Of a DNA stretch of 64,000 bases, positions 9,501-48,972 are shown one piece after another. A model generated the notes under the pieces. That model saw only the letters and a list, made by a program, of their open reading frames with translations, searched no databases and was not told the DNA's origin. Both the position numbers and the translations under genes were made by a program. Source of the DNA: a virus (lineage: Duplodnaviria > Heunggongvirae > Uroviricota > Caudoviricetes); the IMG/VR virus record IMGVR_UViG_2541047913_000007. One strand, 5' to 3'. Every line of letters begins with the position of its first letter. Positions within the stretch are counted from its first letter, which is position 1.

Positions 9501-12500
9501 GGATCACCATTTTTATCCACAGCATCAAGCAGCATCACAACCGCATTTCTTTCTGTCGCGGAACGGTAAATTGCATCCGGATTGTGCATCAGTTCCGGAA
9601 GTCTCTCGATAACATCCATTGGCACCACATGTTTCACGCCATTGGTAGCCTTCCGCACAGTGTCGCGGGAGATAACCAGCGGCAAATCTGGTGCGCCAAG
9701 GTGGCGCAATACCGGCGGCGTACGCCCGATGTTTGCAGTCATTGCACCAGAACGTAACGACTTCATCATTCTGGCAAGGTCATCACGATAACGCTCGCCC
9801 TCACCTTCCGGCACTTTGAACGGATCAGGCTTACCGCTACGGGAGTACTGAGACGATGCGCCAGCGCCATCCTCACGCGGCGTGTAACCTTCCCGCACAC
9901 GCTGGCCTAACGTGCGAATAGTTTCGCGAACAAGTCTGATATCGTTCAGCTCTGTCGGCTTCAGTAACCCCGTGCGACGCAGTACCCCTTTGACCAGGGC
10001 AACAACACGCTCCCACGCCGCCACAAATTTATTCGGCTGTTTCTCCGCCATATGTGCCAGAAATTCACCTGCCTGCACTTCCGGTGATTCCTTACCATAA
10101 GACGCATCAACCTTACGCCAGGCGTCACGGATGGTGGCGTTATCACTGTCACGGGTTTTCAGTACGGTCTTAATAATCGTCTGATATTCCGCTGGCGTGA
10201 CTACATGCTCCATTGCATGGTGAATAATCTCGTGACGTAACTTCTCGCGAACGGTCCGCCCGTCAGGGATGTTATCCGCCACCAGGACAATTTCACGTTT
10301 ATCCGGACGATAGAACGCATGCACCCTGCCGTAACCGTCGAACGATTCACCCGCCAGCGCTTCAGCCTCTTTCTGTGACTTCACCACGCGGACCTTCAGG
10401 TCACTGTCCTTAATGCCACTCATCACGCCACGGGCAACCGCTTCAACCTGCGGGACCGGGCTGCCTTTGGCTTCCGCACTGCGGTTAACATCCGAAATGA
10501 GATTGCCTTCAGGTGTGCGGGTCACGCCCTTACGGGAATAAAACGCAACGCCCTTGTCCGTCTCACGGGTTTTCAGCGTACTGAACAGGTGATCGAATGC
10601 ATCACGAATACCGCCATCCAGTTCCGCATTCGTCGGATAAGCCCAGGTGTTATCTGTGTTGTGCTCAGGTGCCTTACGGATATTGACCAGATAATCATTC
10701 TCCACGCCAGCCGTACGCGCTTTATCCTGAACATAACGCTCAAAGGCACGCGCCGCCATTTCAACATCCGTTGACCAGTACGGTTTTGAGCGCACCTCAT
10801 CGAGAAGCGCTGAACGACGCGGCATGTCACTGCTGTTGATCGCTTTCATCACGCCTTTAAACGCGTCGTAAACCTCCTGACGTACCGGATATTCCGCATC
10901 AACATATCTGCCGTCTTTAAATACGCGCCCGGCACGCTGTGCTTCCGTCATATAGTCGCCACCTGACGTGATCTTCCCGTCAGTGGAAACATCATAACGA
11001 CCAAAATAATTATCCAGTGAATGGAACCATTCGTGGGCCAGCGCCCCCGGTCCGTTACCTTTTGTCAGGTTGATTGCCACCTCACCCGGCTCATAGTGTG
11101 CCGCCGCCTTACCCTTACCACGGGCACCAAAAGCAAGCCCAAGACGACCGTTCAGAGAAAGCGCTTTTGTCGGCACGTTCAGCACATCAGCCAGGTCATG
11201 CAGCGAGTCATAAGCCCGGTTCAAATCAGCCTGACGACGCGGACCTTCCACATAATTACCAAACTGCACACCACGAAAACCAAACGCATCACTGAACTGC
11301 TCCGGCGAAACATCCCCCTTGCGGCGTTCTGGTCCGGTACGATCGCGGTTGGTGGCGTTACGCTGCTCCTCACGCGAAATCTCCCGCATCTCCTTCACAT
11401 GACGAACAAGCTCATCACGATGTGAATCAATGTACTTACGCGCATCACTGGCTGACTTAAAGCCACCTCTCACCCGCATTTTGTTTTTGCCGTAAGCGAT
11501 AAAAATATCGCCACTACGGGTATTCCGGTAAACGTCAAAGCTGATTTTGTCATCTGGTGACGGTGCTGTTTTTTCATCACCTTTCGCCCGTGACTTTTCC
11601 TCCTGCTCTGCAAACCAGGCTTTCGCCTTTGTCAGTAATTCATCCCTGCTTTCCGAGAAAAAGAGGTTACTCCCCTTATTGTCCTTATTGCGCAGTGAAT
11701 AAAGTTTCTGTGGCGGATCGTAACGCTTCCCTCCGGCCGCCTGATACACACCGGATACCACCCGATAAGCAGAAGCCTTGTCCATCTGTGAAGGTGGCAG
11801 CGTGCGTAACAGTTGCCAGGTATCCGCATAACGGGAAGGCATTCTTCCCTCCATCCACTCAGCAAGCCGTCCGGCAGTCACTTTTCCTTCCAGCATTCCC
11901 GCCACGCTTGTGCGGATGCTCTTTACACTCTCCACCCACTTCACCGCATTGAGTTTCGTTTTCGCGGGAATATCACTGCGGTACAGCGCAATCATTGCCA
12001 GTGTGTCAGCGTCGGCCCCTTCGTTCGCCAGTTTTGCATAGTCCGGTTTCGGGAACACTTTGCTCAGCGGCTGCGTGAAATAATCCCTGTCTTCCAGCGT
12101 TTTACCCAGTGTTTCGGCAAGCTGTGCATAACGGTGTTTTGCCGCGCCCTTAATCTCCTCACCAAAGTCTTCAATTTTTGCACCACGCGCCTGCTGGTGA
12201 GTGCTCGGTTTATCTACCGGCACCGGCACCGGCACCGGCACCGGCACCTCAGTATCCGGAACATCGGTTATGGTCTGGCGATTATCCCCGGTCTGTCTGC
12301 GCGCTTCTGCCTGCTGTGCCAGTTCCGGAAGGGAGTCACGAACCATACGAGGGAGTGATTCAGGATGTGGCATATCAACCCCACGCTGTTCAGGTGCAGG
12401 AAGTCCTTCACGCACTGGTGCTGTGGCGTTCTGCTCATCCGGTGATGGCAGACCACGACGAACCGGTTCGCCCTCCAGTATTTCCCCCTGGCGACCAGCG

Positions 12501-14884
12501 GCATTTTCCGGTGCCTGCGCACGTCCTTTCTGGAAACTCTGGCCCTTCACCTCACCGGTTGTGGTAAAACGACCACCACGTCCGGCCTGATTTTCATCCG
12601 GCGTACGCGCCACTTCTCCTGGTAACGGATATCCCTGTCCGGGATGAATATCGCCGGGAGCGGGAAGGCGTGGACGCTCAGTTAACTCCTGTGCTGTCGG
12701 ACCGGCATCACCTTCAGCCATCTGTGAACGTACAAGCTCCTCTGCCGTCGGCGCGTTGCCACGGGCAAGGCGGGCCTGCACTTCTGTATCATCCCCCGTG
12801 AAACCACGGAATCGCGGGTCACGCATGAACGCGGGCTGCTCCATCGGTTCAGCATCAGCAATACGCTCTCCGTCAGCCAGGGTGTTAATGGTCTCCGTTG
12901 CCACATCTTCAGAGAACGCAGGATTATCCATTTCAACGGCATACTGATTCTCGCCTTTCTTCACTACGGACGGTTTCAGGCCGGTGGCGCTGGCATTGCG
13001 GAAAACGTCGCTCCCCAGAGCACTTTTTTCATCCGTGAAATAACGGTTGTCCGGACGCACCTTTTCAATGCGTTCTGCTGGTCTGGACGCACCACTCCCG
13101 TTAATTTCAATACGAACTTCATCCGGATCGCGGAACCGCACCGTCGGGTAAATACTCCCGTCGCCATCATCCGCATTTTCCGGCTGTGGCTGTGCCTCCG
13201 GTCTGGCCTCCTGCTGAGGGCGAAGCACATCACGGATAGCCTGTAACTGCTGCTCTTCAGTATCAGTACGCCCTTCCTTCAGGCTGAGTTTTCGGTATTC
13301 CTCAAGCAGTTCAGGGCGCGGCTTCGCCTTCAGCTCATCCATCACCGCCTGTCGCTTCGCCTGTTCATCCAGTTCATTTAACAGCTGGCTGGCGGCTTCC
13401 CGGCGATGAACGGCAGACGTGTCTCCCTCAGGTGCCATATCCGCATCAGCATACTGTTCCAGAAGTTGCTCGCGATTCATGCCCTGCATGGATTCGCGAT
13501 GCTGTGCCACCGGATCAGCCGGTTCGGGTTGCGGGGCTGCTTCACCCTGCTGTACGACTTCAGCCTCACGCATGGCGGTTTCTTCTGCGGCCTGACGTTT
13601 TCCACGATATCCGGCAACCGCACCGAACGGTGCGCCCATCGCTGCACCAAGAGCGGCTCCTTCGATCGTTGCGTCAGCTACCCCCTCCCATGGTGATATA
13701 TCCATTCCGGCAGTCTCACGCAACGTCATATTTTCCTGGTAACGCGAATAGCCGCCCTGCGCCGCATTAATCGTCCCCTGTTCCGTGGCATTTCTGACAA
13801 TGCCGCTTTTAACGGTCTTCGCCGTGCCCCGCATCGCCAGATTAAACAACTGAGCATCGCCCAGTTTTGCCGCCATGGCATTCACAGCCAGCAATTCAGG
13901 ATCGGTTGCCAGCTGCGCGCGCACCTCATCGGCAACACGCTCTTTTGCCAGATCCATTTTCTGGCGATCAGTAAGCTGTGCGTGCTGCGGATCTGCATCA
14001 ATTGACAAAAACGTCTGCTGAAATTTCGGGGACTTCGCCAGCTCAGAGTAATCCGCGTTAAGAACAGAGTCTGCTGCTGCCATTGCACTCTGCCCCTGTG
14101 CGCTGGCTGAGGAATGGGTGATCAGGCCTGCCTGGAATAAATCCGGCATTTTTTTATCGACAGCTTCTGCTGCCAGTGCGGTAGCTCTTTCCGGCTGCAT
14201 CCCTGCCGCAATGTATTTTTTCTCCAGCCCGGCGGTCAGCACTTTTCGCAGAGTGACTTCACCCAGCTTTTTAGTCACACCGCCTGCAACCATATCAGGT
14301 ACAAGGGCACCAATCAGGTTTACGCCCTTCGCCACCCAGACCGCAGAATCATCATATCCTTCAGTCATCGGTGTATTCAGCGCCCGCTGCGCCCCCGGCG
14401 ACATCTTGCCAGTCAGCCATTCATCCGAGGCTTTAGCGCCGCCACTGACTGCCTTGCCTGTGACCTTCAGACCTTTACCGACAGTATCAGTAACCGCATT
14501 TTTTCCATCAGGCAGAGTGTCGATGACCTCATCCGCCCCCTTGCTGCCACCGACAAAAATATCCTGAACAGTTGCGACTCCCGGCAGCCCCATACGGCTG
14601 AACTCATTTAAAATACGCGCCCCTGTTTTTACCGGGTTCTGAATCATCGCATCACCGAGTCCACGGGCCATTTCCCCTGCCCCCCGGACGGACTGGGCGA
14701 CACCTTTCCCCATAGTTGGCAATACATCGCCCAGGCTGAACGACGTGCTGTTGTCCTTCCAGCGATTGGGATCGGAGAAAAACGCATCATAGCTGTCAGT
14801 CTCGCCCGGCTGCTGAATGTTCAGGCTGTTGCGGTTCTGGTTGCCAAATTGCGCTTCAGGGCGCTGTTCATCGGAATAAGCCAT
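6503..14884 (-). CDS. Giant (2793 aa) multidomain virion-associated protein with zincin-like HExxH motifs; candidate polyvalent injected protein
   Basis: Single uninterrupted ORF of 8.4 kb at the distal end of the structural module; contains ALAHEWFHSL and HEIIHHAMEH motifs, Pro/Glu-rich linkers and a (VP)n linker; all internal opposite-strand ORFs are short. Confidence 0.8.
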   Translation of the reverse strand: MAYSDEQRPEAQFGNQNRNSLNIQQPGETDSYDAFFSDPNRWKDNSTSFSLGDVLPTMGKGVAQSVRGAGEMARGLGDAMIQNPVKTGARILNEFSRMGLPGVATVQDIFVGGSKGADEVIDTLPDGKNAVTDTVGKGLKVTGKAVSGGAKASDEWLTGKMSPGAQRALNTPMTEGYDDSAVWVAKGVNLIGALVPDMVAGGVTKKLGEVTLRKVLTAGLEKKYIAAGMQPERATALAAEAVDKKMPDLFQAGLITHSSASAQGQSAMAAADSVLNADYSELAKSPKFQQTFLSIDADPQHAQLTDRQKMDLAKERVADEVRAQLATDPELLAVNAMAAKLGDAQLFNLAMRGTAKTVKSGIVRNATEQGTINAAQGGYSRYQENMTLRETAGMDISPWEGVADATIEGAALGAAMGAPFGAVAGYRGKRQAAEETAMREAEVVQQGEAAPQPEPADPVAQHRESMQGMNREQLLEQYADADMAPEGDTSAVHRREAASQLLNELDEQAKRQAVMDELKAKPRPELLEEYRKLSLKEGRTDTEEQQLQAIRDVLRPQQEARPEAQPQPENADDGDGSIYPTVRFRDPDEVRIEINGSGASRPAERIEKVRPDNRYFTDEKSALGSDVFRNASATGLKPSVVKKGENQYAVEMDNPAFSEDVATETINTLADGERIADAEPMEQPAFMRDPRFRGFTGDDTEVQARLARGNAPTAEELVRSQMAEGDAGPTAQELTERPRLPAPGDIHPGQGYPLPGEVARTPDENQAGRGGRFTTTGEVKGQSFQKGRAQAPENAAGRQGEILEGEPVRRGLPSPDEQNATAPVREGLPAPEQRGVDMPHPESLPRMVRDSLPELAQQAEARRQTGDNRQTITDVPDTEVPVPVPVPVPVDKPSTHQQARGAKIEDFGEEIKGAAKHRYAQLAETLGKTLEDRDYFTQPLSKVFPKPDYAKLANEGADADTLAMIALYRSDIPAKTKLNAVKWVESVKSIRTSVAGMLEGKVTAGRLAEWMEGRMPSRYADTWQLLRTLPPSQMDKASAYRVVSGVYQAAGGKRYDPPQKLYSLRNKDNKGSNLFFSESRDELLTKAKAWFAEQEEKSRAKGDEKTAPSPDDKISFDVYRNTRSGDIFIAYGKNKMRVRGGFKSASDARKYIDSHRDELVRHVKEMREISREEQRNATNRDRTGPERRKGDVSPEQFSDAFGFRGVQFGNYVEGPRRQADLNRAYDSLHDLADVLNVPTKALSLNGRLGLAFGARGKGKAAAHYEPGEVAINLTKGNGPGALAHEWFHSLDNYFGRYDVSTDGKITSGGDYMTEAQRAGRVFKDGRYVDAEYPVRQEVYDAFKGVMKAINSSDMPRRSALLDEVRSKPYWSTDVEMAARAFERYVQDKARTAGVENDYLVNIRKAPEHNTDNTWAYPTNAELDGGIRDAFDHLFSTLKTRETDKGVAFYSRKGVTRTPEGNLISDVNRSAEAKGSPVPQVEAVARGVMSGIKDSDLKVRVVKSQKEAEALAGESFDGYGRVHAFYRPDKREIVLVADNIPDGRTVREKLRHEIIHHAMEHVVTPAEYQTIIKTVLKTRDSDNATIRDAWRKVDASYGKESPEVQAGEFLAHMAEKQPNKFVAAWERVVALVKGVLRRTGLLKPTELNDIRLVRETIRTLGQRVREGYTPREDGAGASSQYSRSGKPDPFKVPEGEGERYRDDLARMMKSLRSGAMTANIGRTPPVLRHLGAPDLPLVISRDTVRKATNGVKHVVPMDVIERLPELMHNPDAIYRSATERNAVVMLLDAVDKNGDPVVSAVHMKATDKRLEINKVASVYGTENGKKLKSMEMAGLTLYRKEKLSRDNPQYSGLQLPKEERSYRGSVDKILYPEDIRKGPYYSRTSSLTPEETIASRFVRQMQDKFQVLKAVQENIRKTGGKIDDSNNAYMAEELFHGKAENDLNVMKERYVQPLAKLLADYKIAQADLDEYLYARHAPERNAHIAKINPKMPDGGSGMTNAEAAEIMQRVRNSGKQAQYDRLAGIVDDMLARRRELIREAGLEESGVVDAWQNAYRYYVPLKGQDVDGVVSLPRTGKGFTIGGRESRQAMGRASRAQSPSTQAIQDLSESLIRNRKNEVGNAFLKLVQDNPDKDYWQVFTDDKPDTMRAIAERVDPETGETRREVVERPVPMAMMADRYFTTKKDGKTYYIKLHDPRLMRAMKNMGPETSNAVIRTLGKVNRFLATVNTSYNPEFLVSNFIRDVQTAVMNLKAEQGRSDGKLKGLDNLSALAVVKDSRSAMSAVYASLRGKTLTGNGAQWQKVWKEFVEDGGKTGWFNMGDLEGQQKEMDRLVSLAKGGWKGQSIGAWHSFLNLVEDANGAVENALRLSAYKHARDAGLSRQQAASLAKNMTVNFNRRGEQGALMNSLYMFANASIQGTANLVRTLGHLNGDGPLPERLRWKNLNVPQKIALAAVGAGYLLGSLNRSVAGEDDDGVNWYDKVPSHVKERNLVIMKSVFGGKAGEYWSIPLPYGYNVFFLLGHTAEGVAAGDLTASRAAGNVVGGILGAFSPVGSETSETLSGALLKNAAPTILRPFANLAMNENFMGAQIYQENMPFGTPKPDSQLGRRSTPEAYKAFASWLNAFSGGSQYRPGAVDITPESLKFWIDYISGGTGRFISKTTDAAVKSLNGIDIPEQQVPFLGKISGEVMPYADQQKMYDRMTEVAQYHAELKSLTGAERTAFIDENNGKLLMNGLMQDTRKRLKDLRKQRDAIYADSSLSLAQQAAMVKSVERDMKVAVDRFNREYNKKVGVD
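12213..12246. repeat. Hexanucleotide tandem repeat (CGGCAC)x5-6 inside the giant ORF, encoding the PVPVPVPVPV linker
   Basis: Direct reading of caccggcaccggcaccggcaccggcacc. Confidence 0.85.
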
Positions 14885-40611: not shown

Positions 40612-42585
40612 TTATGCTGCTACGGCATTCACACCAACAGTAAGACTTTCAATCAGCACAGGGTAAGTTGCCGCATTTCCGGTAATATCCGTAATTGCCA
40701 GCGCGTTGGCCTCAAAGGCTGCATTCGTCCATCTGGTCAGCGTAAACGGTTTTCCTGCTGCATTATCAAGCACCGGCGTGACGTTCAGCGAGCCACCACC
40801 CGGGAAGCGGAAAGTCAGCGTGTGCCAGTCGTGATCGAACGGACCATAACTACCAAGCCGCTGTGATGTGGTGTTTGCATGATACATCACATTGATGTTT
40901 GTTTTATCAGTCTGCAGATAGAAGGCCGCAATATAACCCTCCTCTGATTCCGCTCCCGGCCATCCACTACCGCGCCAGTAAATACCCGCAGAATATTGAT
41001 TTGCAGAAGCATTGAGAGATACATCATCGGGGATTTTAAAGCGCAGCGTGATTTCACCGCCGTTATCGAACAGCTCCTTCCCCTTACCGGCATCAATTGC
41101 GTGCGATACTTTCCAGGTCTTTTTCTGTGCAAGACCATTTTCTGGTTTTTCAAGACGAAGGGCTTTTTTACCTGAACCACTGTCACTGACCAGCGTGTTT
41201 TTGACATCTGTCAGCGTCCAGCCCTGCGAAGCCAGATCGGCATTTTCCGCATTCGCATCATAAGCCAGCACTGACTGTATCTTTGTCGGGACAACGGATT
41301 CAGGCTGAGTATCGCCACTCTCCTGTGCTGGTTGCGATACGCCTCCGCCTGAAGAAACCGCGGCTTTTGTCACTTTCCCGGAAACAAAATCTGCCACTCT
41401 GCCCACATGCAGAAGAATGGCTGTTGCCAGACGGTCGGAAATAATTCCGCGACGCGCCCATGAACCAAAGTGGGTTTTACGATCGGATGTTGTCCAGCTC
41501 TTCGCATCCGTTCGTCCACCGGAACCATAATACCCGATAGCCGGAATATCCGGGTCTTCTGACGGTTCATTGGTCCCGACTTTCTGACCATTGTCATCCA
41601 TCATAAACGGCACAAAGAAGATATTTTTACCGGCTTTGGTTTTGTATGCGCCATAGACGGCATCGTATTGCGCTGAATACGTCTCCTTCCAGTAGTACGT
41701 CGTGTCACCACAAATCCAGGGCACCAGAGAAGGAGAAGCACCAGCGCACTGACCGGATACTCCCGCCAGGTCAGAACGGTATTTTTCCACCATGGCATCA
41801 AACATGGCGGGCTGACTGGCGTACGCTCCCTGTTTTAAATCAAACTCGCCCTGCATCCAGACAACACAAAGCAGTATGTTTTTGGGGTTTGCCTTCAGCG
41901 CGGCCTGAGTGCGTGTCAGCAGGTCTTTATACAACGGCTTATCAACGCCCCATCGTTCAGATTTATCCGACGCTCCTGAACTTTCACTGAACGTTCCGTC
42001 AGCACCGGCTGTAAACGCAGAGCCACCACGACAGCACGGCACTAACAAAATACCCGCATTTTCCGGCATAAAGGGCAACAGCTTTTTGGCAATATGCAAT
42101 CCCTGTCCGACACACCCATACTGCTCTGCGCTGGCTTTCGGATGAGAAAAACGGCTCAAATCCTGCACATCATGCAGGCAGTGGTCCGCCGGAATGATGT
42201 CGTTATATGCACAGGCCGCACCACCCGGTGTCACCGTACTGCGACGCGCCAGCTGTTTAATACGCGGGTCCGGACGGTCATATGTCTCCGGCAGCGGCAG
42301 GCCTTCACCATACGCCATGCCGTTTGACTGTCCGGCCAGCGCAATGACAAAGTAATATTCTGGTTCAACAACAACAGTCCGGGTACCATCTCCCCCCGGT
42401 GAAACTACCGGAGAGGTCATATCCCCTTCAGCGACTATAGCCTGGATAAATTCAGCACCATAACCCGCGTTTGAGATAATCGGACTACCATAGGGTTGCC
42501 AGCCTTCCTTCAGTTTTTGCGTCAGTTTTCCTGCGAGGTCTGACGGCGATGATGCCCTGACCACGTCATAGTGTTTAAATGCCAT
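40612..42585 (-). CDS. nanS-p: Prophage-encoded sialate O-acetylesterase-like protein (NanS-p type)
   Basis: Start at MAFKHYDVV with GGGAGGAA RBS; SGNH/SASA-like esterase region (ALAGQSNGMAYGEG); located between Q and lysis genes as in Stx phages. Confidence 0.65.
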   Translation of the reverse strand: MAFKHYDVVRASSPSDLAGKLTQKLKEGWQPYGSPIISNAGYGAEFIQAIVAEGDMTSPVVSPGGDGTRTVVVEPEYYFVIALAGQSNGMAYGEGLPLPETYDRPDPRIKQLARRSTVTPGGAACAYNDIIPADHCLHDVQDLSRFSHPKASAEQYGCVGQGLHIAKKLLPFMPENAGILLVPCCRGGSAFTAGADGTFSESSGASDKSERWGVDKPLYKDLLTRTQAALKANPKNILLCVVWMQGEFDLKQGAYASQPAMFDAMVEKYRSDLAGVSGQCAGASPSLVPWICGDTTYYWKETYSAQYDAVYGAYKTKAGKNIFFVPFMMDDNGQKVGTNEPSEDPDIPAIGYYGSGGRTDAKSWTTSDRKTHFGSWARRGIISDRLATAILLHVGRVADFVSGKVTKAAVSSGGGVSQPAQESGDTQPESVVPTKIQSVLAYDANAENADLASQGWTLTDVKNTLVSDSGSGKKALRLEKPENGLAQKKTWKVSHAIDAGKGKELFDNGGEITLRFKIPDDVSLNASANQYSAGIYWRGSGWPGAESEEGYIAAFYLQTDKTNINVMYHANTTSQRLGSYGPFDHDWHTLTFRFPGGGSLNVTPVLDNAAGKPFTLTRWTNAAFEANALAITDITGNAATYPVLIESLTVGVNAVAA

Positions 42586-42786
42586 TATTCCTCCCGGCAG
42601 GGATAGTGTATGCAATCAAGATAAGGTGCGGGCTGACGTCAGTCATGGACAAGGGTTCAGAAACAGGAGGATGACTACAGCCCGCAATACGAAAAAGACC
42701 ATACAGTTGCGCAGAGTGATTACTATCAGGTATTATTCGCCAGCTGAAAATTGATCACTTCACGTTTTGTTGTTTATTCCTTGCCA

Positions 42787-42817
42787 CCCGCGCTTCCCGG
42801 CGCGGGCTTTTTTTTAT
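42787..42817 (+). terminator. Intrinsic terminator (plus strand) upstream of nanS-p
   Basis: CCCGCGCTTCCCGGCGCGGG + TTTTTTTTAT. Confidence 0.6.
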
Positions 42818-42819
42818 CC

Positions 42820-43540
42820 AACAAGAAAGCCCCTCCGGAGAGGGGCTGGAGAGTAGCGCTATGTACCGTTCATGCATGGTGCAGGGTGCCTCCCGGTGAG
42901 TTCAGTATCAGCACCTGAACCCGCACCAGAAAGGATAAGGGGTGTGACCAAACACCTGTCGCTGATATGCCCCTCCGCACAGGGGGATTCACCATGCCAT
43001 ATTTTTTTAACAAACTTCCCGCTGGCCAGACAATAATCGCCAGCCTGAATTGTGAGTAACGTGGCATTTTACGGGAAAACTGTTTTCTGCAGTAAAAAGG
43101 CCCGCCGGAGCGAGCCTGGAAGGATAGCGGTCATGTGATGCCGGTTTCCCGGTAACTCAGCATCGGTATCTGAGTCAACGTTTTCTCTACTGGGTCATTT
43201 CCGATACGTTCCGCCTTCCGGCAGACTTTCATCACGTCAGAAAATATAGCACCCTGAGTAACAGGACAGTACTCAGAATTCAGGAAACTGTGACACATCC
43301 TGCACAGAAAAGCCCCTCCGGAGAGGGGCTGAAGTATAGCCTAATTTCTGTCTGTCGCATGGTGCCAGGTGCCTCCCGGTAAATTCAGCCTGGCTACTGA
43401 ATTTGCATGTTCGCTGGATCATACACTTTGCCAGATGCCCCGCCGCTGAGGGGGATTCACCACGCGATGCAATTTTTAACAAATTCTCCGGCAGCCAGAC
43501 AATCATCAAGCTGTGGAATTGTGAGGTATTTAAAAATTTC
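42820..43540. repeat. Three tandem copies (two complete, one partial) of a ~200-bp structured element in the Q-nanS intergenic space
   Basis: Shared blocks AAGCCCCTCCGGAGAGGGGCT, GCATGGTGC.GGGTGCCTCCCGGT, a second hairpin with covarying stem (GTTCAG/CTGAAC vs AAATTCAG/CTGAATTT vs ACTCAG/CTGAGT), GGGGGATTCACCA, ..GCCAGACAAT..TGAATTGTGAG. Confidence 0.7.
42828..42860 (-). terminator. Intrinsic terminator on late-transcript strand
   Basis: Minus-strand hairpin AGCCCCTCTCCGGAGGGGCT followed by TTCTTGTTGG. Confidence 0.5.
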
Positions 43541-46407: not shown

Positions 46408-47079
46408 TCAGAATTCAAATTGTCTTGCCCGCAGGCTTTTCAGCATTGGCATGGCCCGCTGGATAACGGAACTTGACATGTCGAGACGTGTTACCTCCCT
46501 TAGTAGCGCGTCTCTGTTCTTCGTCACCATGTAGATAGTCTCAAACGCAATGTCATACAGCTTGTTCGTGTATGAGGAGTTCAGCTCTTTCATTATGGGG
46601 TACAGCTGCTTGCTAAGGTCCTGGGCTTTTTCCATCCAGAGTTGCATGTAGCAAAGGAGGATGATTTCCTCGGCTGTGAATTGTGGCTGAATCTGCGGCT
46701 GCTGTTCGGTTGGTGCTGTTTTTCCCTGGCTGAAATAGCAGTCTTCCAGTTTTTCGAACACCTCCCACGCCCGATCGGTTTCGAGCATTTTTGCATGACG
46801 GGCAGCGCCGCGTTCAGTCCAGAGGATGAGGGAACGAACGTTACGGGCAATTTTCACAGAGTAGTTAAAAGCTACTCTGTGCTTGAACTCACGTAAAGTT
46901 TCACCTTCAAGTTTGAAGAAGTGTTTTTCCTCAATGAAACGACCTTTGTTTTCGTGGTGATTCTGGCGAATACGAATAGCTTCTGTGCCGTAAAGGTGCG
47001 CCAAAAGTTCAGTAGTGATAACGGGGATCTGCTTGTAAGTAATCGTGGAGAGTGTTTCAACAGAAACTTGAGTTGTCAT
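46408..47079 (-). CDS. ORF6N/KilA-N-type antirepressor-like protein (Roi-like) sharing its C-terminal domain with the ant-like gene at 3058-3687
   Basis: N-terminal ..YGTEAIRIRQNHHENKGRFIEEKHFFKLEGETLREFK; C-terminal ~100 aa near-identical to ORF 3058-3687. Confidence 0.65.
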   Translation of the reverse strand: MTTQVSVETLSTITYKQIPVITTELLAHLYGTEAIRIRQNHHENKGRFIEEKHFFKLEGETLREFKHRVAFNYSVKIARNVRSLILWTERGAARHAKMLETDRAWEVFEKLEDCYFSQGKTAPTEQQPQIQPQFTAEEIILLCYMQLWMEKAQDLSKQLYPIMKELNSSYTNKLYDIAFETIYMVTKNRDALLREVTRLDMSSSVIQRAMPMLKSLRARQFEF

Positions 47080-47242
47080 AGTGACGCCTCCGGTTGATGA
47101 GTTTTTCATTCACCACCGTCAGGTTCCTAATCATCGGGTGGCGAGACGTACAGGGTTAGGAACTACCGGATCAACCAACCGGCCAGCCTTTCGGCTGCCC
47201 CATACGCCCCACCATAATTCAGATGTGCGTGTGCATACGACA

Positions 47243-47266
47243 ATAAAAAACACGCTCGCGGCGTGT
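47243..47266 (-). terminator. tR2-like intrinsic terminator between replication/cargo region and nin region
   Basis: Minus-strand hairpin ACACGCCGCGAGCGTGT followed by TTTTTTATT. Confidence 0.55.
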
Positions 47267-47366
47267 GTCTGTCGCGGTTGAATATCCGGGGTTCCTAATC
47301 CCGACGCCAGATTTTGCTGGCGTGCGGTGAATATAATCCCGGATACCTATTTTTGTCAAACAACCG

Positions 47367-47394
47367 TTGCGCATTACACAACAGTCGCTATAAT
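47367..47394 (+). promoter_or_regulatory. Putative sigma70 promoter of higBA (-35 TTGCGC, 16-bp spacer, -10 TATAAT)
   Basis: Direct reading, about 30 bp upstream of higB start. Confidence 0.45.
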
Positions 47395-47422
47395 GATTCG
47401 CGTAACGCAACAGGAAACAAGC

Positions 47423-47701
47423 ATGATAAAAAGCTGGAAACACAAAGGACTTCAACGTTTCTTTGAAACAGGAAATGCATCAGGCATAAATCCCAATCAC
47501 GTTAAACGCCTGAGAACGCGCCTTCAGGTAATAGATCAAGCTGAAATCATTGATGATATTAACCTTGCCGGGTACAGGCTGCACCAGTTGCAGGGGGACA
47601 GATCCGATACATGGTCTGTCACCGTCTCCGGTAACTGGAGAATCACATTCGAGTTTCGGAACGGCGATGCTTATATTCTTAACTACGAGGATTACCACTA
47701 A
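47423..47701 (+). CDS. higB: HigB-type toxin (RelE/ParE superfamily)
   Basis: MIKSWKHKGLQRFFETG...GNWRITFEFRNGDAYILNYEDYH strongly resembles plasmid Rts1-type HigB as recalled; toxin-first order with overlapping antitoxin gene. Confidence 0.85.
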   Translation: MIKSWKHKGLQRFFETGNASGINPNHVKRLRTRLQVIDQAEIIDDINLAGYRLHQLQGDRSDTWSVTVSGNWRITFEFRNGDAYILNYEDYH

Positions 47702-48006
47702 TGGCGATGTTTAACCCCCCTCATCCCGGAGAAATTATTGCTGATATTCTGGAAGATCAGAATATTGGAATCAGGGAACTGGCAAGAGCGCTTGATGTCG
47801 CGCCTTCCACTGTTCAGCGACTGGTTTCAGGTAATGCGACAATATCTCCTGAAATGGCTGTTCGTCTCGCTGCTGTCCTGGGTGGAACTCCGTCTTCATG
47901 GATTCGTCTCCAGACGGCATGGAGCCTCGAAAAAGCGGAAAGAGAAGTTGACGTATCTCATCTCTCAACAAAATACCGCCCGGCAGAAATTTCGCCTCAT
48001 GCTTAA
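47701..48006 (+). CDS. higA: HigA antitoxin (XRE-type HTH)
   Basis: HTH IRELARALDVAPSTVQRLVSG; 1-bp overlap with higB. Confidence 0.85.
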   Translation: MAMFNPPHPGEIIADILEDQNIGIRELARALDVAPSTVQRLVSGNATISPEMAVRLAAVLGGTPSSWIRLQTAWSLEKAEREVDVSHLSTKYRPAEISPHA

Positions 48007-48297
48007 CCACCGCGCCGTCATTCTGGCGGCGCTTTACCCCAGAGAAATATCAATCACCGGATTACCACATCCCACTCCGGCTCCTGCCATCTCAAATCCG
48101 GTGAATCATTTCTCTCAGGAATAACCATTACGTCCTTTTCCCTTCGCTCCCTTTCTATCGCCATCACAGCCAATGCTGCAACCATGATGTATTTTTGTTC
48201 GTCGGTTCCTGTTTCATAACGACGCATGAGGGTAAACTCGGGGCGATCAGTAACCTCAATGATTTCGTTAATTTCTTTAATTTCGCGAGGAATATCC

Positions 48298-48972
48298 ATG
48301 GGTTTAGTCTCCTTTGATATCACATGCCCGCACTGTTTAAAAGAGCGAGCTGTTATTGAGGCATTTGCCGAAAAACAAATTGAAAAAACACCTTTTTTTA
48401 ACGTCGCTTTTGTATGCAGAAGTTGTCATCGAGGAGGTGTTGCTATTGTTGAAATCCCATCAGACCACTATCACGGTCCCATGGCGGAAAGCCAGAAAAA
48501 AGACCTCGATATTCTGATTTCAGGAAATAGCCAGTACCGTTTCCGCAAGATCTATCCTGTGGTCAAAAAAATTACCGCACCAGAATATACGCCCCCGGTT
48601 GCAGACCGTACTTTTGTTGAGGCAAAAGAGGATTTACAGAGGAGGCGGTACGACACAGTGGTTATTCTTTGTCGCAGAGTCCTCGATATCTCCACGAAAA
48701 AACTGCTCGGCGATGAAGCAGGAAAAGAATCGCTGTCGCAACGTATTCAGATGATTTACAAAAAAGGCCTGATCACTGAACAGATGAAGGAATGGGCTCA
48801 TATTGTACGAATTGATGCCAATAAAGCAGTTCATACAGATGAAGTTTTCACACCAATTGAGGCAAGCCAGATCCTGAGTTTTACCGAAATGTTTTTAGTC
48901 TACGCCTTCACTCTGCCTGCAATGGTGGAAGCCAGACGTGAACAAAAAAGATCAGATTCAGCCTCTATATGA
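48298..48972 (+). CDS. Zinc-ribbon plus DUF4145-like domain protein (defence-associated domain family)
   Basis: Start at MGLVSFDITCPHC with AGGAA RBS; CPHC..(16)..CRSCH zinc ribbon; C-terminal region with R..AN.A.H pattern (IVRIDANKAVH) recalled as DUF4145-like. Confidence 0.5.
   Translation: MGLVSFDITCPHCLKERAVIEAFAEKQIEKTPFFNVAFVCRSCHRGGVAIVEIPSDHYHGPMAESQKKDLDILISGNSQYRFRKIYPVVKKITAPEYTPPVADRTFVEAKEDLQRRRYDTVVILCRRVLDISTKKLLGDEAGKESLSQRIQMIYKKGLITEQMKEWAHIVRIDANKAVHTDEVFTPIEASQILSFTEMFLVYAFTLPAMVEARREQKRSDSASI

Follow-up and report, generated by a model that had tools for sequence, protein, structure and literature searches.

What is a two-gene toxin–antitoxin (TA) pair doing within the early right operon of a lambdoid prophage, pointing against the direction of its transcription? 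The pair lies in a stretch of 64,000 nucleotides that we analysed as a whole (referred to below as the window). An initial annotation had read it as a HigB/HigA module carried as prophage cargo. Our analysis suggests that it is very probably a functional Rts1-type HigBA type II operon, inserted as an oppositely oriented moron in the nin region of a prophage with lambda/HK97-type immunity. What such an operon does for the prophage is considered below.

Identification of the higBA pair

Both reading frames are intact, adjacent and co-oriented, and they occupy exactly the interval first given for them (47423-48006). The described order, with the toxin gene first and an overlap of 1 bp, is correct: the TAA of higB (47699-47701) and the ATG of higA (47701-47703) share base 47701 within the sequence TAATG. 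Each gene is preceded by a Shine-Dalgarno sequence, AGGA at 47412-15 for higB and GAGGA at 47687-91 for higA.

HigB matched the Pfam model PF05015 over its full length (E 4e-22, 78.9 bits, the cut-off being 27 bits) and, among PHROGs, phrog_3066, described as 'toxin of TA system' (E 2e-37). The best of the solved structures were the HigB chains of Rts1 (Proteus vulgaris), which aligned without gaps at E 5e-32. The close match to the Rts1-type killer protein that had been claimed amounts to 55 of 92 identical residues (60%). [quoted passage not shown]

The antitoxin matched HTH_3 (E 5e-10) and scored 88.4 bits against TIGR02607, the NCBIfam equivalog model for HigA, above its cut-off of 47.7 bits. 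Its match to the solved HigA of strain CFT073 (2ICP) covered residues 1-89 at E 8e-28. Family models and layout together support the initial identification of the pair as a toxin-first HigB/HigA type II module. Compared with a diverged copy in locus L088 (dS ~0.35), dN/dS was 0.08 for higB and 0.11 for higA; ratios near 0.1 in both genes show that strong purifying selection maintains the toxin as well as the antitoxin.

Some public records give HigB as a protein of 124 aa with a longer start. We rejected the longer starts at GTG 47327 and ATG 47393, since both the PF05015 model and Rts1 HigB begin at MIKS; a start at ATG 47393 would also overlap the -10 hexamer of the putative promoter. The coordinates of all features are collected in Table 1.

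Table 1. Features of the higBA locus and of a comparable nin-region module
Feature	Position	Strand	Description
ant (antirepressor gene)	46408-47109	-	ORF6N and P22_AR_C domains: PF10543 E 1e-19, PF10548 E 2e-7
C4-type antisense RNA (P1/P7 immI type)	47134-47219	-	Rfam RF01695, 67.5 bits (gathering score 45)
isrK-family RNA	47245-47323	-	Rfam RF01394, 68.9 bits (gathering score 50)
isrK promoter	47330-47359	-	TTGACA-18-TATATT, 11/12 consensus; promoter scan
O1, candidate HigA operator	47366-47382		palindrome GTTGCG-N5-CACAAC overlapping the -35
Putative hig promoter	47367-47394	+	TTGCGC 47367-72, 16-nt spacer, TATAAT 47389-94; inferred start ~47401
Candidate second operator	47395-47411		conserved 17-nt block GATTCGCGTAACGCAAC over the inferred start site
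higB	47423-47701	+	92 aa; by family, predicted RelE/ParE-superfamily ribosome-dependent mRNA endonuclease toxin
higA	47701-48006	+	101 aa; by family, predicted XRE-type HTH antitoxin
Hairpin	48012-48032	+	GC-rich, 9-bp stem, 3-nt loop, then CUUUA; inverted repeat I5
Intact ParD-ParE	3047-3609 of L125 and L126 (E. coli chromosomes)		opposite to PR-direction genes

The higBA module is already known and publicly annotated, and within its well-studied family it is nothing unusual. Proteins identical to those of the window are found in public databases on 129 contigs (HigB) and on at least 1000 (HigA), under the names RelE/ParE family toxin or 'killer protein' and HigA family antitoxin, respectively. 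RefSeq annotates the pair in an E. coli locus that is 98.8% identical, and the record of phage GER2 calls the toxin 'plasmid maintenance system killer HigB'. In the literature on Stx or lambdoid phages we found no paper or experiment on this particular module.

Promoter, candidate operators and 3′ hairpin

The pair had also been credited with a promoter of its own. Its hexamers do lie at the places named, and the -10 is perfect and conserved in relatives; the -35 is weak. It matches the consensus at only three of six positions, which is why a consensus scan does not list this promoter. We aligned six diverged loci, two of which have a heavily substituted spacer; neither the -10 nor the TTGCG of the -35 varies among them, unlike the adjacent bases. 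The Rts1-type promoter Phig of locus L091 (TTGCAC-17-TATAAT) is laid out similarly.

Two conserved elements accompany the putative promoter. The arms of the O1 palindrome are invariant in the alignment and its centre is variable; it is the sole perfect match to this pattern within the 64-kb window. The block GATTCGCGTAACGCAAC is nearly invariant (one substitution in one locus) between flanking positions that vary, and it includes the near-palindrome GCGTAACGC and a CGCAAC half-site. The Rts1 operators O1 and O2 overlap the -35 and the -10, and HigA or HigB-HigA represses through them (PMC12266136). By likeness to these, O1 of the window is a candidate HigA operator, and autoregulation of the pair by HigA would be a reasonable inference; it rests on analogy because the candidate operators differ from those of Rts1 in sequence and spacing. 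Operator sequences of the Rts1 type were rejected for the window: the ATTACAC present in its promoter varies among relatives, and GTTGCG-N5-CACAAC is what stays.

The hairpin behind higA has a folding energy of -16.5 kcal/mol (z = -2.8). With its short U tract, it is a weak terminator candidate.

A divergent isrK/C4/antirepressor operon

The initial annotation overlooked the neighbour of higB. On the minus strand, diverging from the toxin gene via a promoter region common to both in the 100 bp before higB, lies an isrK/C4 antirepressor operon. Both hexamers of the strong, near-consensus isrK promoter are invariant in the alignment of the six diverged loci, and its -35 is 7 bp from the O1 palindrome. 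The isrK model begins at 47323, 7 nt past the promoter -10; the same RNA scored 44.5 bits against RF03163, slightly below the gathering score of 46.7. It carries the a1/b1 target sites of the C4 RNA and ends in an intrinsic terminator (47266-47250, followed by a U run), which was found by the terminator scan.

The C4 RNA has the loops GGUUGAU and GUUCCUAA, whose complements UCAACC and UUAGGAAC are both present in isrK and again just 5′ of the GGAGG ribosome-binding site of ant. These complementarities were read from the sequences; duplexes predicted by RNAduplex for the whole RNAs were over-extended and uninformative. The true start of ant is likely the ATG at 47079, behind GGAGG, and not position 47109; in locus L003, which is 98% identical, RefSeq places the start of ant at the equivalent of 47079. 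A further terminator (46403-46384) lies past ant.

The host prophage and the antisense geometry

The window holds a lambdoid E. coli prophage with immunity of the lambda/HK97 type, marked by cI (+), cro (54279-54079, -) and N (+). On the minus strand follow cro, a remnant of cII, DnaD-like and DnaC-like replication genes, DUF1627 and DUF977 genes, ant, ninB and Q, a Q-like antiterminator gene; the gene content also includes a large terminase subunit, an endolysin and a YbcO-type putative nuclease gene. A foreign-DNA signature was not found in base composition.

The higBA pair has the DUF977 gene on one side and the antirepressor/ninB genes on the other. Since the genes from cro to Q are on the minus strand, the PR operon runs in that direction and higBA, on the plus strand, is opposed to it. 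Both the status of prophage cargo and the convergence with the early-right transcript are thus as originally described. The scan found no minus-strand terminator-like site between 48054 and the isrK terminator, so an antiterminated PR transcript would cross higA and higB in antisense. By geometry only, induction would be expected to yield antisense RNA across the pair. Minus-strand terminator-like sites were found upstream of the pair, at 48743-48703.

Within cII, at about codon 10, sits an IS3-family element of 1.3 kb (52601-53907) that separates cro from the replication genes. It carries transposase genes orfA/orfB and an ALIL frameshift pseudoknot (52933-53049). Owing to this insertion, the prophage may be regulatorily impaired or defective.

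Several other elements of the window were observed. A DUF4145 gene (48226-48972, +) is also oriented against the PR operon and runs antisense over two minus-strand terminator-like sites; it belongs to a PHROG named 'DNA binding protein', has a weak PADLOC match to PD-T7-4 (E 0.003) and may be a second accessory cassette. Two tandem matches to the STnc100 sRNA family (42817-43026 and 43302-43495, -; 130-139 bits) lie between the Q gene and a large ORF (40612-42615), in the slot where Stx phages carry stx; no long minus-strand ORF is listed in this gap (the minimum listed being 110 aa), and no tRNA genes were found. An ORF of 2793 aa (6503-14884, -) with LPD1, LPD5, LPD38 and MuF_C domains represents a 'large polyvalent protein' within the prophage. 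Near the left end, by a host molybdopterin oxidoreductase gene, are two matches to the sRNA-Xcc1 family (2395-2483 and 2932-3017, +; 69-73 bits), a family also seen in several unrelated viral contigs that bear HigB.

Spread of higBA and the antirepressor operon

In phage GER2, the segment 46766-48031 of the window is present at 99.8% identity. All five viral contigs with a HigB 93-99% identical to ours have isrK and C4 directly upstream, in divergent orientation. The block consisting of higBA, isrK, C4 and ant was found before ninB in the window and also in L003, behind ninE in L088 and L127 (E. coli FDAARGOS_944), and near int in GER2. At every prophage position seen (three positions), higBA is opposed to the neighbouring genes. 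Homology to GER2 and to PA2-type Stx2a phages stops at 48031, that is, at the hairpin, which marks the right-hand border of the block. These comparisons indicate that higBA and the divergent isrK-C4-ant operon travel between phages as one mosaic unit.

The linkage of HigB to isrK/C4 was seen only in loci of the E. coli type (L084-L088, L003, L127 and GER2). A general linkage is ruled out: isrK and C4 are absent from the 20 nearest HigB loci of other species, which come from species-representative genomes and share 53-78% identity. In the Rts1-like higBA viral contigs L091-L093, a C4-type match lies at ~1820-1905 on the same strand, ~1.1 kb upstream of the pair, and is followed by a small HTH ORF; this match is probably an unrelated neighbour.

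The toxin gene is rare in E. coli. Among 5426 complete E. coli genomes, higB was present in 22 and higA in 68, and of the 218 phage records matched only that of GER2 contained one location at which 80% or more of the query, which spans higB, was covered. The pair therefore shows the marks of a moron, namely a flanking promoter and hairpin (weak as a terminator), an independent orientation and variable presence.

Toxin loss in PA2-type Stx2a phages

PA2-type Stx2a phages (e.g., VT2phi_272) share two stretches of the window, 46727-47359 and 47679-48031. Between them, 703 bp of other DNA replaces higB and its promoter, so that only the last 22 nt of higB are left ahead of an intact higA. Two genes lie in the insert, one for a small lipoprotein and the other for an orphan antitoxin of the ParD family (TIGR02606). 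In VT2phi_272 (L002, 4154-5184), as in ~42 E. coli genomes, two toxin-less antitoxins therefore stand side by side, adjoining the isrK promoter.

The orphan higA is intact in ~46 complete genomes and many Stx phages, and it differs from the window copy by four substitutions, three synonymous and one non-synonymous. Loss of the toxin with retention of the antitoxin is the pattern that an active toxin predicts. The O1 palindrome is missing from the Stx2a-phage locus: its 9 kb yielded no copy, even with two mismatches allowed. As these phages keep the isrK promoter, isrK, C4, ant and higA without O1, the ant operon does not need this palindrome, which speaks against HigA as a necessary regulator of the antirepressor promoter.

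The PA2-type Stx2a phages of E. coli O157:H7 carry this locus in a decayed state, and the higBA of the window is its intact ancestral form. With its orphan higA and orphan parD, the PA2-type locus is a clean natural example of toxin-first loss.

A nin-region slot for TA modules

In ~300 complete E. coli genomes, the same nin-region slot, between the replication genes and RusA/Q, is occupied by ParD-ParE modules ~88% identical to the parD of Stx2a phages. They too are oriented against PR, and isrK and ant are not adjacent to them. The presence of an unrelated ParDE in the same slot and in the same orientation suggests that this is a general slot for morons. TA modules that point against the PR transcript are thus common in the nin region of lambdoid prophages, and the higBA pair adds to this pattern.

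Proposed function and alternative explanations

From what is established for the family, we propose that the sigma-70 promoter gives rise to a bicistronic higB-higA mRNA, in which the TAATG overlap would couple the synthesis of toxin and antitoxin at translation. A HigA dimer would bind and neutralise HigB, and its HTH would repress the promoter at the -35 palindrome and probably also at the conserved start-site block. Should the supply of HigA fail, either because the DNA segment is lost or because transcription is shut off, HigB would be freed, enter the ribosomal A site and cleave mRNA by means of His54, Asp90, Tyr91 and His92, and growth would stop. That HigB is toxic, that HigA neutralises it and binds the operators, and where transcription starts are all predictions.

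The effect is most likely addiction, in which higBA would stabilise the mosaic unit that it forms with isrK-C4-ant, and hence the prophage. The addictive paaR2-paaA2-parE2 system, which is embedded in the regulation of a lambdoid prophage, is a precedent that supports this reading. Exclusion of other phages may be a by-product. It could also be the primary role of the pair: shut-off of host transcription by an infecting phage would deplete labile HigA, and HigB would abort the infection, with the orphan higA of PA2-type Stx2a phages acting as a counter-defence against HigB. This anti-phage defence by abortive infection or superinfection exclusion is consistent with the PHROGs class of the pair ('moron, auxiliary metabolic gene and host takeover'), with the position of higBA next to the oppositely oriented DUF4145 gene and an immunity-related antirepressor module, with HigB relatives on 41 viral contigs, and with an orphan higA that has stayed intact and in which silent changes prevail. 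We regard it as a serious alternative but as rather unlikely, because PADLOC defence models gave no match to HigB and only weak HTH matches for HigA, the orphan higA has diverged too little from that of the window to reveal selection, and plain addiction fits equally well. Addiction and defence would be indistinguishable from sequence alone.

The divergent arrangement raises the question of whether the pair takes part in the prophage switch. Occupancy of O1 by HigA or HigB-HigA might tune the antirepressor, or N-antiterminated PR transcription on induction, with the antisense RNA that the initial annotation had foreseen, might lower HigA and release HigB as a host shut-off factor. The promoters stand back to back with inferred starts ~78 bp apart, they are conserved together with the O1 palindrome, and lineages that are dS ~0.35 apart have inherited the unit whole; the scan also left the path of a PR transcript clear of minus-strand terminators as far as the one in isrK. 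In P22, the repressor gene is divergent from the ant promoter, which offers a geometric precedent. Yet the centre of O1 lies ~51 bp upstream of the isrK start, beyond the core promoter, and the PA2-type phages retain the antirepressor operon and higA in its absence. The nearest HigB loci of other species are without isrK or C4, the ParDE modules, with equal position and orientation in the nin region, have no ant beside them, and the IS3-family element breaks the PR operon upstream in the window. We therefore consider this explanation very unlikely. We see no support for a regulatory link of higBA with induction or with the antirepressor switch, though one may exist. We would likewise give very little credence to the still broader idea that higBA and isrK-C4-ant form one functional unit, with the TA state feeding antirepressor expression and the orphan higA of PA2-type phages conferring immunity against rivals that carry HigB. 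If it were true, the state of the TA pair would reach decisions between lysis and lysogeny or on exclusion. Finally, the intact reading frames could be an inert relic that is no longer expressed or toxic, given that the IS in cII may have left the prophage defective, the -35 is weak and higB is rare in E. coli. This is highly improbable: all catalytic residues are kept, dN/dS is ~0.1 in both genes, the promoter is conserved, and where decay did happen, the toxin was removed and the antitoxin kept, as expected if the toxin was active.

Taken alone, the pair matters little, as a further annotated example of HigBA on a mobile element. Its fixed back-to-back linkage provides a testable case of a TA module that stabilises, or talks to, a phage regulatory module.

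Comparison with known systems

The antirepressor side of the unit resembles immI of P1/P7 (c4 RNA-icd-ant) and the isrK-orf45-anrP locus of Gifsy-1, in which RNAs of the isrK/C4 families also lie 5′ of an antirepressor gene. The layout of complementarity is shared as well, the C4 loops being complementary to stretches of the leader and of the ribosome-binding region of ant (PMC4825925). No equivalent of icd or orf45 was identified at the antirepressor operon of the window. At the Gifsy-1 locus, antQ is situated 5′ of isrK, and no TA partner is described there (PMC4825925).

Among TA modules of lambdoid prophages, the nin-region ParD-ParE differs from higBA in belonging to another TA family, in its antitoxin-first order and in not adjoining isrK/C4/ant. 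For the paaR2-paaA2-parE2 system of the cryptic prophage CP-933P in E. coli O157:H7, addiction was demonstrated and a role in limiting rearrangements at that place was suggested (PMC8630535). Like higBA, it is a TA system of the RelE/ParE superfamily that has regulatory genes as neighbours within a lambdoid prophage; unlike higBA, it consists of three genes, among them a separate regulator, is located in the immunity region, encodes a ParE-type toxin and has the antitoxin first.

The best solved match to the antitoxin is CFT073 HigA (2ICP/2ICT), the product of a chromosomal gene of a uropathogenic strain, to which the HigA of the window is nearer than to Rts1 HigA (E 1e-19). As a module, the pair most resembles HigB-HigA of Rts1 (4MCT/4MCX, 4YPB, 9CHL). 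Both are toxin-first with a 1-bp overlap, as is the Rts1-type locus L091, and both have a HigB of 92 aa, a HigA with a complete HTH, and a TTGC-type -35 with a perfect TATAAT under palindromes. They differ in their half-sites (GTTGCG/CACAAC in the window versus TTACA-type in Rts1) and in the spacing of the centres, which is ~29 bp between the candidate operators as read from the sequence of the window and ~22 bp in Rts1 as implied by contact positions (PMC12266136). They also differ in their carrier: Rts1 hig resides on a plasmid, whereas the higBA described here resides in a lambdoid prophage.
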